A stretch of DNA of 64,000 nucleotides from Candidatus Yanofskybacteria bacterium (GCA_016185525.1 JACPNK010000002.1:11616-75615); one strand, 5' to 3'; shown: positions 15,031-60,345, numbered from the stretch's first letter. A program made the numbers and translations. The notes: generated by a model not told the origin, from the sequence alone.

Positions 15031-15105
15031 CCGCCCGTAGCTCAGCTGGTAGAGCAACTCCCTTTTAAGGAGATGGTCGTTGGTTCGACTCCAACCGGGC
15101 GGACA
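15031..15105 (+). tRNA. tRNA-Lys (anticodon TTT), CCA not encoded
   Basis: Cloverleaf folded by hand. Acceptor ccgcccg/cgggcgg, D-stem gctc/gagc, anticodon loop cTTTTaa, T-arm gttgg-ttcgact-ccaac, discriminator A. Confidence 0.8.
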
Positions 15106-55000: not shown

Positions 55001-55162
55001 AAGCTTCGCAGATACAGCCTTTTCGGTACTTTCGCTGACTCCAGCGATCAGCTCACTCGCTGTTCGCCTGGGTTTTGTCTGGAGTTACAGAATAATTATA
55101 CTCCAGCCAACCAAGCAAACCGCAGGCTCACAGCGACCTCAAAGGCTGTATCTGCTGCGCTT
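55001..55162 (+). repeat. structured repeat family B, copy 2
   Basis: About 90% identical to the reverse complement of 31454-31613 and about 75% identical to 25271-25432. Confidence 0.6.
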
Positions 55163-55171
55163 TTTATATAA

Positions 55172-56413
55172 ATGCGTTTATCACAATTATTCACCCGCAC
55201 CGAAAAAGAGGCGCCAAAAGATGAGGCAAGCGTAAATGCTCAACTTTTGGAAAGAGCCGGTTTTGTTTACAAAAATAATTCTGGAATTTACACCTATCTG
55301 CCTTTGGGTTGGCGGGTGATAAATAAAATCACGGCGATTATAAGAGAAGAAATGAACGCGATCGGCGGACAGGAGATGTTTATGCCGGCTTTAGTAGACA
55401 AAAGGTATATGGACTCCACTGGCCGCTGGGATGTGGAGGTGGCTTTTGAAGCCAAGGGCAAAAAAGAAAACGAAGCAAGGTTTACTCTCGGCTGGACTCA
55501 CGAGGAGGTTATCACAGAAATTGCCTCTAAGTATATCAGCTCATACAAAGACTTGCCGTTCTCTTCTTATCAGATACAAACTAAATTCCGCAACGAGCCC
55601 CGAGCGAAATCCGGCCTTTTACGGGGCAGAGAATTTTTAATGAAAGACTTGTATAGTTTTCATGCCTCGGAAGAAGATTTTTTGAGATATTACGAAAAAG
55701 TCCGCGGCGCTTATCACAAAATTTTTGAAAGATGCGGCTTGAAATCTTTCTACACTTTAGCGGCAGGCGGAGACTTTACGGCAAGCAATACTCATGAGTT
55801 TCAGGTTTTGGCGCCGGTGGGTGAGGATACTATTTTTATCTGCTCTAAATGCGAGTATGCCGAAAATAAAGAGATTTCTTCTCTAGCTAACGGTGGTTTG
55901 TGCTTAAAATGCGGCGGCAAAGTCAGGGAAGAAAAGTCCGTTGAAGTCGGCAACATTTTTCCTTTAGGCACTAAATACACCGAAGCTTTAAATTTACAAT
56001 TTACGGATGAACGGGGGAATAAAGAATTTGTGGTCATGGGTTCATATGGCATTGGTCTGGGCAGACTGATGGGAACTGTTGCCGAAATTTATCATGACAA
56101 AAACGGATTAATCTGGCCGGAGTCAATTGCGCCTTATAAATTTATTTTAATAACTCTAGACCACACCAAAGAAGAAGGGGATAAGTTATATCAAAAACTT
56201 TTGGAACAAGGGGCTGAAGTTTTATACGACGACAGAGAAGACAAAACCGCTGGCGAGAAATTTGCCGATGCCGATTTGCTGGGCATACCGATCAGGCTTG
56301 TAATTAGCCCCAAAACGTTAAAAGAAAAAAGCGTAGAGATGAAGATGAGAGGAAAAAAGGTGACAGAATTAACCAAACTCAAAGAAGTTGAAGAAAAACT
56401 GGACTTAAGCTAG
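55172..56413 (+). CDS. proS: proline--tRNA ligase (short archaeal-type)
   Basis: Class II motifs, a Zn-binding C-terminal CSKCEYAEN...CLKCGG cluster and an anticodon-binding domain. Confidence 0.8.
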   Translation: MRLSQLFTRTEKEAPKDEASVNAQLLERAGFVYKNNSGIYTYLPLGWRVINKITAIIREEMNAIGGQEMFMPALVDKRYMDSTGRWDVEVAFEAKGKKENEARFTLGWTHEEVITEIASKYISSYKDLPFSSYQIQTKFRNEPRAKSGLLRGREFLMKDLYSFHASEEDFLRYYEKVRGAYHKIFERCGLKSFYTLAAGGDFTASNTHEFQVLAPVGEDTIFICSKCEYAENKEISSLANGGLCLKCGGKVREEKSVEVGNIFPLGTKYTEALNLQFTDERGNKEFVVMGSYGIGLGRLMGTVAEIYHDKNGLIWPESIAPYKFILITLDHTKEEGDKLYQKLLEQGAEVLYDDREDKTAGEKFADADLLGIPIRLVISPKTLKEKSVEMKMRGKKVTELTKLKEVEEKLDLS

Positions 56414-57642
56414 TTACCAATTGGGCTATTGACACCATGGCATCAAGTTTGCTATACTGATAAAGCTCACCCAAAGAAGGGTGAGGGGCCAAAGGAGGGG
56501 CCCTGAAAACAAAAAACCCTCTCAACATAACCAACCACTCTTGTTGAAAAACAACGGAGGTGAGATTATGACTTGAAACCAAGCGCTTAGGCGCACGGTC
56601 TAAAAACCGCGGAACTTATAGTACCCAGGCGGGGAGCTGGTAAAATAAGGCTAAAAACCAGCTCCCACCCATTAAATAGTCCCGCTCTTTTGTTCTTTAT
56701 ATATTTTATTTAAAGAGCGGGGCTGCTTAATGGGTAATCCAAGGTTTACCCTTGGAAACATATCCTTGGAAACGCTTGACAGGGGTAGGGCGGTTGTGAT
56801 ATACTTAGAGTATAAGGTTGAAAACTAGTAAAAAGCCTTGCAAAATACTACTTTCTTTATGTAGAAATATGTAAAGGAAGTCGGATTTTGCGAGACTGAA
56901 GAATGTGGGAGAGCCACAAGGCAAGGGCCAACCAGCCTAATAAATCTCCCAAAAAAACTTAAGTCTCGCTCGATTTTCTGTCTCCAGCACAGTACTAGGG
57001 AGACAGAAACTGTGATGCGGCACAGTACCAAGACGGAGAGTAGCCGCTTCTACTCTCCACAGTTATAGCGAGGACCTGCTGAAGCTCGAAGTAGAACTTC
57101 CCTTGTGGGTGGTTCCGGGCGGGTTGAAGTTTCAAAACCCCAGCAGGTTCCTCGTTACTTTTAAAAAATAACGGCTCTGAAAAATAGCTTAAAAGATCTC
57201 ACTTATTAAAATTTTCTAGACAATCTGTCTAAGACTGAATTACTGATTTTTGAGGCTATTTTGCGGAGCTGGCGTCCCGCTCCCGATGTTGCGCGCCTTC
57301 TTGGCAAGCAGTACCAGACGCAGTACCAGACCAGAAGGACATGAATAGAAGTACAACATCGGGGGTAACGAAGAAGCACCAAACCCCAGGGATGCCCGCT
57401 CCGCTCGCTCTTTATATTTATTTTTTATTGCTACTAGCTATAGCTATTTTCTATTGCTAGTCCCTACACCGAATGGTGTAGGGCTTCGCAAGATATTTCT
57501 ATCGGAAATCAGAAATGGTGGAAGATGGAAGTATCTTGCGGAGGAGCAACAACCATCAGCAAGGGGTGCGGGGGAGCCATTAAGGAGGCGACCCCTCATA
57601 CCCTTGCCTCTTCCGCAGTTTAGTAAAGCTGTTTGTTTCACC

Positions 57643-57706
57643 GAGTGGGCTGGCTTGTAAGTTGTATTGCAAGCAAAGATGCTGTGCCAGCCCACTCACC
57701 TTTTTT
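57643..57706 (+). terminator. strong intrinsic terminator (12-bp GC-rich stem gagtgggctggc/gccagcccactc plus TTTTTT)
   Basis: Read directly from the sequence. Confidence 0.65.
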
Positions 57707-57982
57707 AAAATAAAGTCTTTCAGAAATAGTTCACAAAAATTTGCGAGTTATTTCTGTGAGACTGGTAATCGTCTAAAGGATAGGGCACCTCTTTCTGACT
57801 GAGCGGTCTTTGGGGGAAAAACCTGTTCGATTCAGGTAGCCAGTCTCACACTTCGCAAAATGTTTCTAAGTTATTGGAAATATTTTGCGGAGTGGGACGG
57901 CGACGTACTACAGGCGAAGGCGCATCACCCAAGGCCCTGTCGTAAGCAAACGCCTCCCCGCTCCGCAGTTAGTATTATTACG

Positions 57983-58018
57983 GCCCTATTGGAAACCCCG
58001 ATAGGGCTTTTTTCTTTT
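57983..58018 (+). terminator. intrinsic terminator (gccctat-tggaaaccccg-atagggc plus TTTTTT)
   Basis: Read directly from the sequence. Confidence 0.65.
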
Positions 58019-58060
58019 GCATAATTTCGGGATTTTGTTTAGAGTAACAAAAAAGCCCAA

Positions 58061-58447
58061 ATGACAAATGAACAAATGACAAATCAAATCCAAAGCTCAA
58101 ATGTCAAAAAATACGATTTGGAAGAAAGAACAGCAGTTTTGGGGCAAAACATAATCGATTTTGTAAGAACTTTATCTAAAAACTCAATTACTAATCCGCT
58201 TATTAGTCAAGTAGTTAGAGCTGGAACAAGCATCGGAGCAAACTACATGGAAGCAGACGCATCCGAATCAAAAAAAGATTTTCTACACAAAATTGGTATC
58301 TGCAAAAAAGAAAGCAAAGAAACGATGCACTGGCTAAGGATGATAGCGCATGCTATGCCTGAAAAACAAAACCAATGCAGGCAACTGTGGAAAGAAGCGC
58401 ATGAACTTTTATTGATATTTTCCAGTATTGCTAAAAGAAAGTATTAG
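58061..58447 (+). CDS. four-helix-bundle protein (23S rRNA intervening-sequence-type, TIGR02436-like)
   Basis: VVRAGTSIGANYMEADASESKKDFLHKIGICKKESKETMHWLRM matches the family signature. The gene is bracketed by imperfect inverted repeats rich in aatgacaaatga (58043-58075 and 58449-58496). Confidence 0.7.
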   Translation: MTNEQMTNQIQSSNVKKYDLEERTAVLGQNIIDFVRTLSKNSITNPLISQVVRAGTSIGANYMEADASESKKDFLHKIGICKKESKETMHWLRMIAHAMPEKQNQCRQLWKEAHELLLIFSSIAKRKY

Positions 58448-58503
58448 TTTGGATTTTGACATTGATTTGTCATTTGGATTTTGTCATTTGTCATTAAAAT
58501 TTT

Positions 58504-59553
58504 ATGTTAAACAAACTCTTCGGATTTTTCTCAAAAGACATTGGCATAGACTTGGGTACGGCTAATACCTTAGTTTATGTGCGGGGCAAGGGCATAGTTA
58601 TTAATGAGCCGTCAATTGTAGCCATAAACAACAAAACCGGGACAATTTTAGAAATTGGCCAGGAGGCCAGAAAAATGGTTGGCCGGACACCGGGTTACAT
58701 TGTGGTTGCCAGGCCTTTGGTTGCCGGTGTGGTTTCCGATTTTGAAGTAACCGAGCAGATGCTCAAATATTTTATTGACAAAGTTCATCAGGAAAGTTTC
58801 TCTCTTTTGCCACGGCCCAGAGTGGTGATCGGCGTGCCCTCCGGAGTGACTGAAGTTGAAAAAAGGGCGGTGGAAGACGCGGCTTACAATGCCGGCGCCA
58901 GAGAAGTTTATTTAATTGAAGAACCGATGGCGGCGGCAATCGGCGCCAGACTGCCGGTGCAGGAAGCGGCGGCCAATGTGATTATTGACATCGGCGGCGG
59001 CTCTACGGAAGTTGCCGTTATTTCTATGGGGGGCGTGGTTGCTTCCCGTTCTTTACGCATCGCCGGCAATAAATTTAACGAGGATATAATCCGCTATCTG
59101 CGCGAGGAGAGAAACATGCTGATAGGCGAGGCGACTGCCGAAAATATAAAAATTCGTTTAGGTTCGGCCTACCCTTTGGACGAGGAGTTGAGCGGAGAAA
59201 TCAGAGGCCGGGATTTGGTCAGCGGTTTGCCTCGTGAGATTGTCATTACTTCCGAAGAAATACGCAAAGCAATTTCACGGTCTGTCAAAAGCATTTTAAC
59301 TGACATCAAGGCTACCATAGAAGAAACTCCGCCGGAATTAATCGCTGACTTGTTGAGTCGAAATGTTTACCTTTCGGGCGGAGGCAGTCTTTTGCGGGGC
59401 ATGGATGAGATAGTTTCTCACGAAATTAAACTGCCGGTCAAAGTTGTTGATGACCCGCTGACTTCTGTCGCCAGAGGCTGTGGTTTTGTTTTGGAGAACA
59501 TAGATAAACTCAAAGAAGTTTTAGTGGAAACCTCTAAAGAGGCTTATCTATAA
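58504..59553 (+). CDS. mreB: rod shape-determining protein MreB
   Basis: Actin-fold motifs (IGIDLGTANT, DIGGGSTEVAV). Confidence 0.9.
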   Translation: MLNKLFGFFSKDIGIDLGTANTLVYVRGKGIVINEPSIVAINNKTGTILEIGQEARKMVGRTPGYIVVARPLVAGVVSDFEVTEQMLKYFIDKVHQESFSLLPRPRVVIGVPSGVTEVEKRAVEDAAYNAGAREVYLIEEPMAAAIGARLPVQEAAANVIIDIGGGSTEVAVISMGGVVASRSLRIAGNKFNEDIIRYLREERNMLIGEATAENIKIRLGSAYPLDEELSGEIRGRDLVSGLPREIVITSEEIRKAISRSVKSILTDIKATIEETPPELIADLLSRNVYLSGGGSLLRGMDEIVSHEIKLPVKVVDDPLTSVARGCGFVLENIDKLKEVLVETSKEAYL

Positions 59554-59556
59554 AAA

Positions 59557-60345
59557 ATGCAAAAGAGTTTTTTGAAAAAAATTTTGCTGGCACTGGCAAT
59601 CTTAGTCTTGCTGGTTTTTTTAAATAACTACGCAACTAACCAATTTTTCAAAAGTTTTTTGGTTCAAGCTCTCAAGCCTTTTTTAATCAAGACATATGCG
59701 AGCCTGAACAGTTTTCAATTCAGGCTGGTTTCTTGGTTTAGAATAGACAATATAATTTTAGAAAATCAGTTTTTAAGCCAGCAAAACCGCCAGTTATTTT
59801 CCAAGACTTTAAAAATGGAAGAACTGGAAAAAGAAAACGAGTTTCTTAGGAAAGAACTTGGCGTGTCTCAAAGAAGAAAGTGGCAGATTGAGATTGCCAG
59901 TATTTTCCAGCTTAACACTAGCGGAGCATTTCGTACGGCTTTTGTGGACAAAGGAAGCAACCAAGGGATTAAATCAGGCATGGCTGTCGTTTTTGGGGGT
60001 GAAATACTGGTTGGCGTTATCAAAGAAGTTTTTCCGGACAGTTCCATGATATTGCTGGTTACCGACCCCAGGCTTACCGTCAGCGTCAAATCAAAAGAAG
60101 CTGAAGTTTCAGCGAGAGCAGTCGGAAGTTTAGACCAAGGTTTGTTTCTGGAACTGGTTGCTAATCAAGAAAACGTTAAAACAGGCGACCTTTTTTTAAC
60201 CAGCGGTTTGGACAGTTTGTCAAGCGCTTTAGTCGTCGGCCGGGTGGCCAGTATAAAATCCGACGACAGAGGGTTGTTCAAAACCGTACGGCTTGAACCG
60301 GAATTTCAGAATATCTTGCCGGAAAGCGTATTTATCATAAAATGA
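59557..60345 (+). CDS. mreC: rod shape-determining protein MreC
   Basis: N-terminal TM plus coiled coil, a beta-rich C-domain and its position after mreB. Confidence 0.7.
   Translation: MQKSFLKKILLALAILVLLVFLNNYATNQFFKSFLVQALKPFLIKTYASLNSFQFRLVSWFRIDNIILENQFLSQQNRQLFSKTLKMEELEKENEFLRKELGVSQRRKWQIEIASIFQLNTSGAFRTAFVDKGSNQGIKSGMAVVFGGEILVGVIKEVFPDSSMILLVTDPRLTVSVKSKEAEVSARAVGSLDQGLFLELVANQENVKTGDLFLTSGLDSLSSALVVGRVASIKSDDRGLFKTVRLEPEFQNILPESVFIIK

Follow-up and report, generated by a model that had tools for sequence, protein, structure and literature searches.

What is a gene of a protein family known from intervening sequences (IVSs) of ribosomal RNA (rRNA) doing between proS and mreB? The question is raised by a 64,000-nt stretch of DNA from a Candidatus Yanofskybacteria bacterium (GCA_016185525.1, JACPNK010000002.1:11616-75615; in the following called the window), in which a gene for a 128-aa four-helix-bundle protein lies directly upstream of mreB, between two inverted arrays of short repeats. 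An earlier reading made from the sequence alone (the sequence-only reading) had seen in it a mobile or IVS-derived cassette. Here we delineate the element as a gene enclosed in a hairpin of tandem heptamers, a design that is present in most relatives of the gene, close and distant.

Knowledge of the IVS protein family goes back to the early 1990s, and structures have been solved since 2006. The assignment of the 128-aa product to this family as a TIGR02436-like four-helix-bundle protein, proposed in the sequence-only reading, was borne out by independent methods. Profile hidden Markov models (HMMs) yielded matches to PF05635 (51.6 bits, cut-off 33.8, E 1.3e-13) and TIGR02436 (74 bits, cut-off 24, E 9.6e-21), while scores for the NCBIfam subfamilies NF008911 (21 bits, cut-off 137) and NF008912 (19 bits, cut-off 124) remained far below threshold. 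In an AlphaFold model based on 31 sequences (predicted local distance difference test, pLDDT, 88; predicted template modeling score, pTM, 0.80), helices span residues 20-35, 44-66, 71-98 and 100-125, whereas residues 1-16, encoded by the 5′ repeat arm, are predicted to be disordered. Foldseek matched this model to the PDB entries 2RLD (template modeling score, TM, 0.74/0.87), which is also the closest solved relative by sequence (E 7.8e-12), and 2GSC (0.74/0.84), each containing five chains. A looser structural match (TM 0.60-0.77) was found to Avd (4DWL, 8UB7), the accessory variability determinant of diversity-generating retroelements (DGRs); by sequence, the similarity to Avd was too low for detection by phmmer against the PDB. 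The signature quoted in the earlier reading is present: the segment R-x3-S-x3-N-x2-E is intact as R53, S57, N61 and E64 in VRAGTSIGANYMEA, and the leading G of the family motif G-x2-R-x3-S-x3-N-x2-E (PMC3936711) is replaced by Q50. With 65-74% identity to thousands of database proteins across phyla, the gene looks to be under selection rather than a relic. By homology with Avd, the protein probably binds nucleic acid, possibly the heptamer arrays; we know of no function of the IVS protein family outside DGRs. Searches of PADLOC and PHROGs gave no matches and there were only two weak phage matches, so a role in defence or in phages was dropped.

The inverted repeats that the sequence-only reading had placed around the open reading frame (ORF) are real, with a local inverted repeat alignment score of 41 compared to 17.1 ± 2.8 in shuffled sequences (z 8.5). 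Their limits had to be redrawn, the 5′ arm running to about 58109 and the 3′ arm to about 58509 (Table 1), and the repeat unit is not the 12-mer suggested there but a degenerate heptamer, CAAANNN in one arm and NNNTTTG in the other, with a lag-7 autocorrelation of 0.54 in each. Among the units of the 5′ arm are CAAATGA, CAAATCA, CAAAGCT and CAAATGT. Allowing up to one mismatch, there are 7 copies of AATGACAAATG in the window (expected 2.1; 0/100 shuffles reach 7), of which the arms contain 4, and no second heptamer array of the cassette type exists elsewhere in the 64 kb. A repeat search returned overlapping pairs of arms within 58052-58109 and 58448-58505, among them 58073-58101/58448-58476 (29 nt, 79%), 58052-58072/58462-58482 (86%) and a perfect 12-mer (58072-58083/58480-58491).

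The long-stem hairpin around the gene, anticipated from ORF-bearing IVSs, was recovered as well. In the minimum free energy (MFE) fold of the whole 471-nt RNA, the two ends are paired. When a short linker takes the place of the ORF interior, the two arms give a structure of -40.7 kcal/mol (z -5.9), matched by 0/200 shuffles. Two helices form the core of the stem, a perfect one of 12 bp (58060-58071 with 58485-58496), which includes the AUG start codon, and one of 15 bp (58073-58087 with 58463-58477); the heptamer looped out between them is as expected if the numbers of units in the two arms are unequal. A weaker outer pairing (58045-58054 with 58500-58509) takes in the mreB start codon (58504-58506), which the outer end of the 3′ arm overlaps. 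Thus, both a stem and a 7-nt periodicity exist at this locus.

The arms are A/T-rich and repetitive, and short-read contigs tend to end within the 3′ arm, as might be the case for chance low-complexity sequence or an assembly artefact. Against such an origin stand the z-scores for alignment and folding, the recurrence of the gene-in-hairpin design in about 75 independent loci, and the contigs of three other, independent sequencing runs, which match 55127-58480 and 58461-60000 at 100% and overlap across the region. We count this explanation as refuted, leaving it hardly any probability. One contig terminates in a 19-nt run, CTGTCTCTTATACACATCT, that is not present in the window and is recognisable as a Nextera adapter.

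To delineate the design beyond the window, one genome per species was scanned, yielding 80 close loci with proteins 58-73% identical to that of the window. According to record titles they belong to Patescibacteria, Dehalococcoidia, Nitrospirota, Desulfobacterota, Gammaproteobacteria and others. Conservation of the flanking inverted repeat in homologous loci, on which the sequence-only reading had staked its proposal, was found: nearly all 80 loci have the same type of flanks, and 60 of the 77 testable ones reach z > 4 against shuffles, those failing mostly having mis-set starts or truncated flanks. The median inverted repeat score was 37, compared to 18 in a direct-orientation control. In 72 close loci the lag-7 autocorrelation was 0.48 in the arms and 0.25-0.27 in the ORF interior and distant flanks. 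Successive CAAA motifs are spaced by 7 nt in 348/658 cases, the commonest units being CAAATGT, CAAAATC, CAAATGA, CAAAGTT and CAAAGCT. Cognate arms of the close subfamily form duplexes of -38.4 kcal/mol versus -34.8 for non-cognate arms, a small advantage (p 7e-4).

A distant set comprised 15 plasmid-borne homologues with 31-41% identity, from Nostoc, Anabaena, Planktothrix, Pseudanabaena, Aulosira, Dolichospermum, Chlorohelix, Bernardetia, Chondrinema, Monoglobus and Treponema. Flanking inverted repeats were found in 14 of these at z ≥ 3 and in 11 at z > 7. The arms again consist mostly of tandem heptamers (lag-7 autocorrelation 0.51 and 0.47 for the two flanks), with sequences quite unlike those of the window: (AATTCGC)4, (AATCCCC)4(AATCGTA)3, (AATTCAA)4-5, (GAGGTCG)3-4, (TAATTCG)4 and AAGTAAA. 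Although the units differ, cognate arms of these cassettes and the window pair far better than non-cognate ones (-57.0 versus -35.2 kcal/mol, permutation p 5e-5). The family therefore keeps the complementarity and the 7-nt periodicity of its arms but not their sequence. In the Monoglobus copy between hsdS and hsdR (L188:580-930), which is unannotated, the ORF is interrupted by two in-frame stop codons and the 24-nt arms are intact (z 8.4), so arms can outlive their gene.

Table 1. Coordinates of the cassette and its surroundings in the window.
Feature	Position	Strand	Remarks
5′ arm	58045-58109	+	~8 degenerate heptamers, CAAANNN type; holds the start codon (58061) and the first ~16 codons
3′ arm	58448-58509	+	NNNTTTG heptamers; begins at the base after the stop codon
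Stem core, 5′ side	58060-58087	+	Two helices (12 bp, 15 bp)
Stem core, 3′ side	58463-58496	+	One heptamer (58478-58484) looped out
Four-helix-bundle protein gene	58061-58447	+	128 aa; PF05635 / TIGR02436; Avd-like fold
mreB	58504-59553	+	PF06723; first gene of mreB-mreC-(mreD)-pbp2
proS	55172-56413	+	TIGR00409, 442 bits; adjoins mreB directly in relatives
Terminator-like hairpin and T run	57982-58018	+	End of the upstream structured region, ~27 nt before the 5′ arm
Non-coding, highly structured region	56414-58044	+	1.63 kb between proS and cassette; context only

None of these cassettes was seen in rRNA. As noted before for the window, it contains no rRNA (Rfam at gathering threshold finds only a tRNA, 15031-15103). 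Rfam found rRNA in 0/20 close loci, with the caveat that rRNA operons are often missing from metagenome-assembled genomes (MAGs), and a scan for 23S/16S motifs was without match in 77/80; the three remaining loci had weak matches to a peptidyl-transferase motif, for which an rRNA context was rejected on lack of confirmation by Rfam, leaving 0/80. With the close subfamily overwhelmingly free-standing, "IVS-derived" as a statement of direction found no support, and the copies in rRNA may just as well be one particular form of a more general cassette.

Instead, we observed a tight, co-directional embedding between unrelated host genes. Across the 80 close loci no neighbour gene is conserved; next to the cassette, ABC ATPases, glycosyltransferases, HicAB pairs and methyltransferases are encoded most often, and no reverse transcriptase (RT), transposase or recombinase recurs. 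Neither is there a homologue of MreB, ProS, RseP or MreC in any of them. A conserved link with mreB had been suspected from similar downstream N-termini in three loci (L048, L054, L069) and was rejected for this reason, the downstream gene being one for a small membrane protein. The upstream neighbour is co-oriented with the cassette in 67/75 loci (p 0.0016) and the downstream neighbour in 65/75 (p 0.010) against a background of 75%; measured against an expectation of 50%, this co-orientation (87-89%) has p < 1e-10. Median gaps to the neighbours are only 31 and 91 nt, so that the arms fill the intergenic spacers. Plasmid cassettes also lie inside obvious operons (RND adaptor/permease, hsdS/hsdR, helicase/methylase, csx2/cas1).

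Some individual settings deserve mention. In Pseudanabaena (L183) the cassette lies between csx2 and cas1 on the same strand, and on Anabaena and Nostoc plasmids between cas2 and cas1 on the opposite strand (L184:1492-1839, L195:592-948); the latter are exceptions to co-orientation. This recurrence in CRISPR adaptation modules agrees with the older report by Zhang and Ye, who described family members between cmr3 and cmr2 (PMC3936711). Another cassette follows 17 nt downstream of a tRNA gene (L076:2913-2984), with ORF-less heptamer hairpins on both sides within the same 6-kb locus. The gene for P0056, a homologue of 68% identity whose name comes from a Pacearchaeota MAG (L094-L099, e.g., L094:1220-6369), lies between genes for a 582-aa protein and a 717-aa intein/NYN/Fib_succ protein and 2.3 kb upstream of a bAvd-RT fusion gene; hence, a DGR with its own fused Avd stands beside a free cassette. 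In L101:911-3369, the 582-aa gene and the cassette are duplicated together in tandem.

How the window's cassette came to its place was addressed by comparing 80 metagenomic loci encoding MreB relatives of 53-78% identity. Upstream of mreB, proS is found in 31 of these, mostly in the order rseP-proS-mreB-mreC, and the proS-mreB gap is ≤ 150 nt in 23 of the 31, compared to 2,090 nt in the window, where it holds the structured region and the cassette. None of the 80 loci encodes the four-helix-bundle protein. The identification of the flanking genes and the view that the cassette landed between them are thus upheld: because syntenic relatives have proS before mreB without the cassette gene, the cassette is an insertion at this locus. 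The junctions are not alignable since the syntenic relatives are at most 78% identical in MreB. The nearest relatives carry other insertions at this site, one a permease gene and one a structured non-coding stretch, which marks the proS-mreB spacer as an insertion hot spot. In the closest relative, a sequence in the spacer has ends that resemble the acceptor and T-arm of a tRNA and enclose a long insertion (L103:4320-4450); this may be an intron-containing or degenerate tRNA, though ARAGORN did not call it.

Movement in the recent past, as the word "mobile" in the sequence-only reading implied, is a different matter. The window holds a single cassette copy; neither the cassette nor any recurrent neighbour encodes a transposase, and the ragged arm ends show no recognisable target-site duplication. 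Exact-sequence copies of the homologues P0031 (context ileS-orf-gene-recO) and P0056 occur, across 10 places, in one genomic context each, and there is therefore no sign of recent transposition. In one population (L083-L092, the protein named from a Gribaldobacteria MAG), some contigs are without 46 nt of the 3′ arm between direct copies of TTTAACATTTGGATTTT (~3373-3426 in L083), while the aligned cassette region of ~520 nt is otherwise identical; this difference is either a genuine length polymorphism or due to the repeat having collapsed in assembly.

Hairpins of the same unit type also occur without the gene. We report only instances inspected by eye, as counting by regular expression and folding z-score was too crude. 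Near cassettes, ORF-less hairpins lie at L033:2030-2150, L076:2690-2810 and L076:5975-6140, and one at L034:6080-6210 has a remnant ORF inside. Among relatives of the window they occupy operon spacers (L110:1688-1790, L147:3575-3690), in one case between mreB and mreC (L120:2415-2505). Their appearance is that of cassettes that have lost the gene by deletion, corresponding to ORF-less IVSs. Heptamer arrays exist as singletons, too: in two relatives from the candidate phyla radiation (CPR), (CAAAATT)5-6 arrays without a complementary partner nearby lie apparently within a homologous coding region (L126:2610-2648, L130:6631-6669).

The closest known systems are the 23S rRNA IVSs of Coxiella and Leptospira, which share the protein family, an ORF in the loop of a terminal stem and the location inside a longer transcript. 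In Coxiella, the terminal stem of the IVS measures 28 bp and is cleaved by RNase III, and tandem GACAGAT heptamers in variable number precede the S23p start (PMC4990558). In another register GACAGAT reads CAGATGA, one base off the CAAATGA of the window arms; heptamers of variable copy number just before the start codon and the existence of ORF-less versions are further common features. Unlike these IVSs, the cassette sits in the spacer of a protein-coding operon and not in helix 9, 25 or 45 of 23S rRNA; its arms are longer (~60 nt) and more degenerate than the Coxiella stem, the 5′ arm encodes the N-terminus, and conservation of the protein is strong, in contrast to the decaying ORF of Coxiella. 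IVP ORFs have been found in rRNA insertions of CPR bacteria as well (PMC11270868). Other systems are more remote. DGR Avd shares the four-helix-bundle fold and is grouped with IVS-encoded proteins in NCBI CDD cd16375 (PMC10053308), but the cassette has neither a nearby RT nor template/variable repeats. To our knowledge, heptamer arms are not a DGR feature. REPIN-RAYT systems resemble the cassette in a vertically stable gene between inverted repeats and gene-less hairpins in spacers (PMC3116915). The cassette gene is, however, not a transposase, and its repeats are short tandem units rather than the fixed 20-150-nt consensus of REPIN, Correia or enterobacterial repetitive intergenic consensus (ERIC) elements. 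Correia elements are cut by RNase III within mRNAs. The cyanobacterial short tandemly repeated repetitive (STRR) sequences are likewise tandem heptamers in intergenic transcribed spacers, and the cyanobacterial family members that we examined are flanked by exactly such arrays; STRRs have, in contrast, been described as direct arrays of unknown function. Eukaryotic foldback transposons have long inverted ends made of short tandem sub-repeats in variable number, with a coding loop or none, but differ in domain of life, size and proteins, so that they serve as an analogy only.

Taking these observations together, we lean, by a modest degree, toward a free-standing hairpin cassette of the IVS type in an mRNA operon, co-transcribed with mreBCD and tolerated through RNase III-type processing of its stem. 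The cassette would have inserted into a short proS-mreB spacer in the direction of the mre operon and would lie on one RNA with mreBCD; we infer this co-transcription because the cassette has no terminator of its own, for which there is no space with mreB beginning 8 nt after the last heptamer, and because the search for a promoter between cassette and mreB found no good one. On that RNA, the arms would pair over 27 core base pairs, up to ~55 in all, burying the cassette start codon and bringing the flanks together. RNase III, known to excise the IVSs of Coxiella, Leptospira and Salmonella without religation (PMC4990558), would by analogy cut the stem, so that the cassette RNA is excised, the flanking RNA stays functional and insertion into operons and rRNA alike is tolerated. 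The protein would be translated mainly from nascent RNA, before the 3′ arm is made. Such a cassette would explain the tolerance of insertion, the orientation bias, the tight packing and the retention of complementarity over sequence. Several observations weigh against it. The terminator-like hairpin ahead of the 5′ arm means that an incoming transcript must read through or start downstream. Arms of the close subfamily are nearly interchangeable, and their complementarity thus comes mostly from the common unit type, not from compensatory change. There is no G-U sign of selection on the sense RNA (duplexes of -38.4 kcal/mol for sense and -40.1 for antisense; 321 versus 389 G-U pairs), in a test that is confounded by the partly coding 5′ arm. 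Two Nostoc cassettes (L191:500-1030, L200:470-1020) have ORFs ~90% identical and identical inner arms, yet entirely different outer arms, each pair still a perfect mirror: (AATTCGC)n in L191 and, in L200, a unique palindrome half of 30 nt, a segment that is a dispersed repeat present in 13 Nostoc plasmid records. Such a swap is impossible by point-wise RNA compensation and points to DNA-level copying or insertion into pre-existing palindromes. Finally, the IVS of Coxiella does not seem to yield its protein, and its RNA is unstable once excised (PMC4990558), so that the function of the cassette may be nil.

The Nostoc replacement also speaks for the main rival, that the arms act as DNA in a foldback or mobilisable element, during insertion, excision or recombination, and that the RNA stem is a by-product. 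A factor acting in trans or the encoded protein would then use the arms as terminal inverted repeats or hairpin-forming DNA, and their complementarity would be kept by copying at the DNA level, through template switching or gene conversion from one arm to the other, or would arise where the insertion hits the loop of a palindrome already in place. The lack of sense/antisense asymmetry fits, as do arms changing by whole units or blocks (e.g., the 46-nt deletion between direct repeats), the varying heptamer copy number among Coxiella strains (PMC4990558), syntenic relatives without the cassette, the spread over many phyla at 58-73% protein identity, and ORF-less hairpins in spacers of related genomes, reminiscent of miniature inverted-repeat transposable elements (MITEs) or REPINs beside a full-length partner (PMC3116915). 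What this rival leaves unaccounted for are the missing transposase, recombinase or RT in or recurrently near the cassette, the undefined ends without recognised target-site duplication, the single contexts of exact copies, and a four-helix bundle with no known catalytic activity; nor would a DNA-only mechanism be expected to give the orientation bias, though selection for expression could create it. We consider it possible, at roughly a third of the weight given to the IVS-like mRNA cassette. Somewhat less probable still is that the arrays are multi-site targets of the encoded protein, which on binding its own mRNA or DNA would regulate its gene or the neighbouring ones, with the inverted symmetry secondary. 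Periodic arrays do accompany the gene across the family, an arm covers the start codon, the relatives that match the model are pentameric (2RLD and 2GSC, five chains), and Avd, which shares the fold, occurs in a complex of RNA and protein (8UB7). Sequence-specific binding is hard to reconcile, however, with units that differ radically around similar proteins, even within one Nostoc strain (AATTCGC in L191, GACTTGC in L196), with one close pair that swapped heptamers for a non-periodic 50-nt palindrome, and with the variable number of units per arm. These three readings are not mutually exclusive. The gene as the Avd of a DGR, by contrast, is rejected for this locus as very improbable: PF05635 resembles Avd (PMC10053308), the fold matches and P0056 lies near a bAvd-RT fusion gene, but there is no RT or template/variable repeat pair within 5 kb of the cassette, no recurrent RT in the 80 loci and no match in PADLOC or PHROGs.

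The protein family, its occurrence outside rRNA (hence NCBI's neutral name) and in cas loci, and the stem and heptamers of the Coxiella IVS are already known. In a literature search that had most subscription papers outside its reach, we found no description of inverted tandem-repeat arms around non-rRNA family members, of the operon-spacer habitat or of ORF-less CPR derivatives, and no paper tying STRRs to PF05635 genes or reporting their inverted arrangement around a gene. For rRNA IVSs, we know of no agreed origin. From this analysis, the rRNA elements emerge as the rarer form of a general layout in which a gene sits in the loop of an inverted tandem-repeat hairpin within operons of many phyla, among them operons for efflux, restriction-modification and Cas proteins. 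What had been an oddity of some pathogens thereby turns into a widespread, testable system, whose arms are concrete RNA and DNA substrates, and a link to the unexplained cyanobacterial heptamer repeats may exist. For annotation, the design accounts for small genes interrupting operons and for short-read assemblies breaking beside them. Speculatively, and with low probability, PF05635 genes plus inverted arrays form one ancient, pan-bacterial class of hairpin cassettes, in which the pentamer maintains, spreads or processes the hairpins like a RAYT. If so, cassettes would lodge in operon spacers or at the tips of transcribed hairpins, and rRNA IVSs, ORF-less CPR hairpins and at least part of the cyanobacterial STRR arrays would be by-products or derivatives.

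Within 5 kb of the cassette, Pfam and NCBIfam assign rseP, proS, mreB, mreC and pbp2. The structured region upstream of it, which the sequence-only reading had joined to the cassette, has no counterpart beside other cassettes or in relatives, and this connection found no support; no similarity was seen in any fetched locus or syntenic relative, nor any match to an Rfam family, tRNA or tmRNA. The region holds no ORF >83 aa, which is unusual for a compact genome, and has local folding z-scores down to -8, compared to ~0 in the flanking genes, with at least 6 hairpins of 50-70 nt. Two near-consensus promoters (TTGACA-18-TATACT with extended TG; 56429-56458, 56776-56805) and two terminator-like ends (57640-57705, 57982-58018) can be recognised, as well as two paralogous units of ~200 nt (57478-57705, 57840-58018) with common CTTCGCAA...TTGCGGAG...CCGCAGTT. 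The region probably represents several novel small RNA genes. ProS has only 413 aa and aligns with the bacterial proS model in two separate parts (1-237 and the C-terminus); judged from its sequence, it seems to be a form without the inserted editing domain. The spacer between rseP and proS (55040-55199) folds more stably than shuffles (z -4.3, 160-nt window) and could be a leader or terminator for proS.

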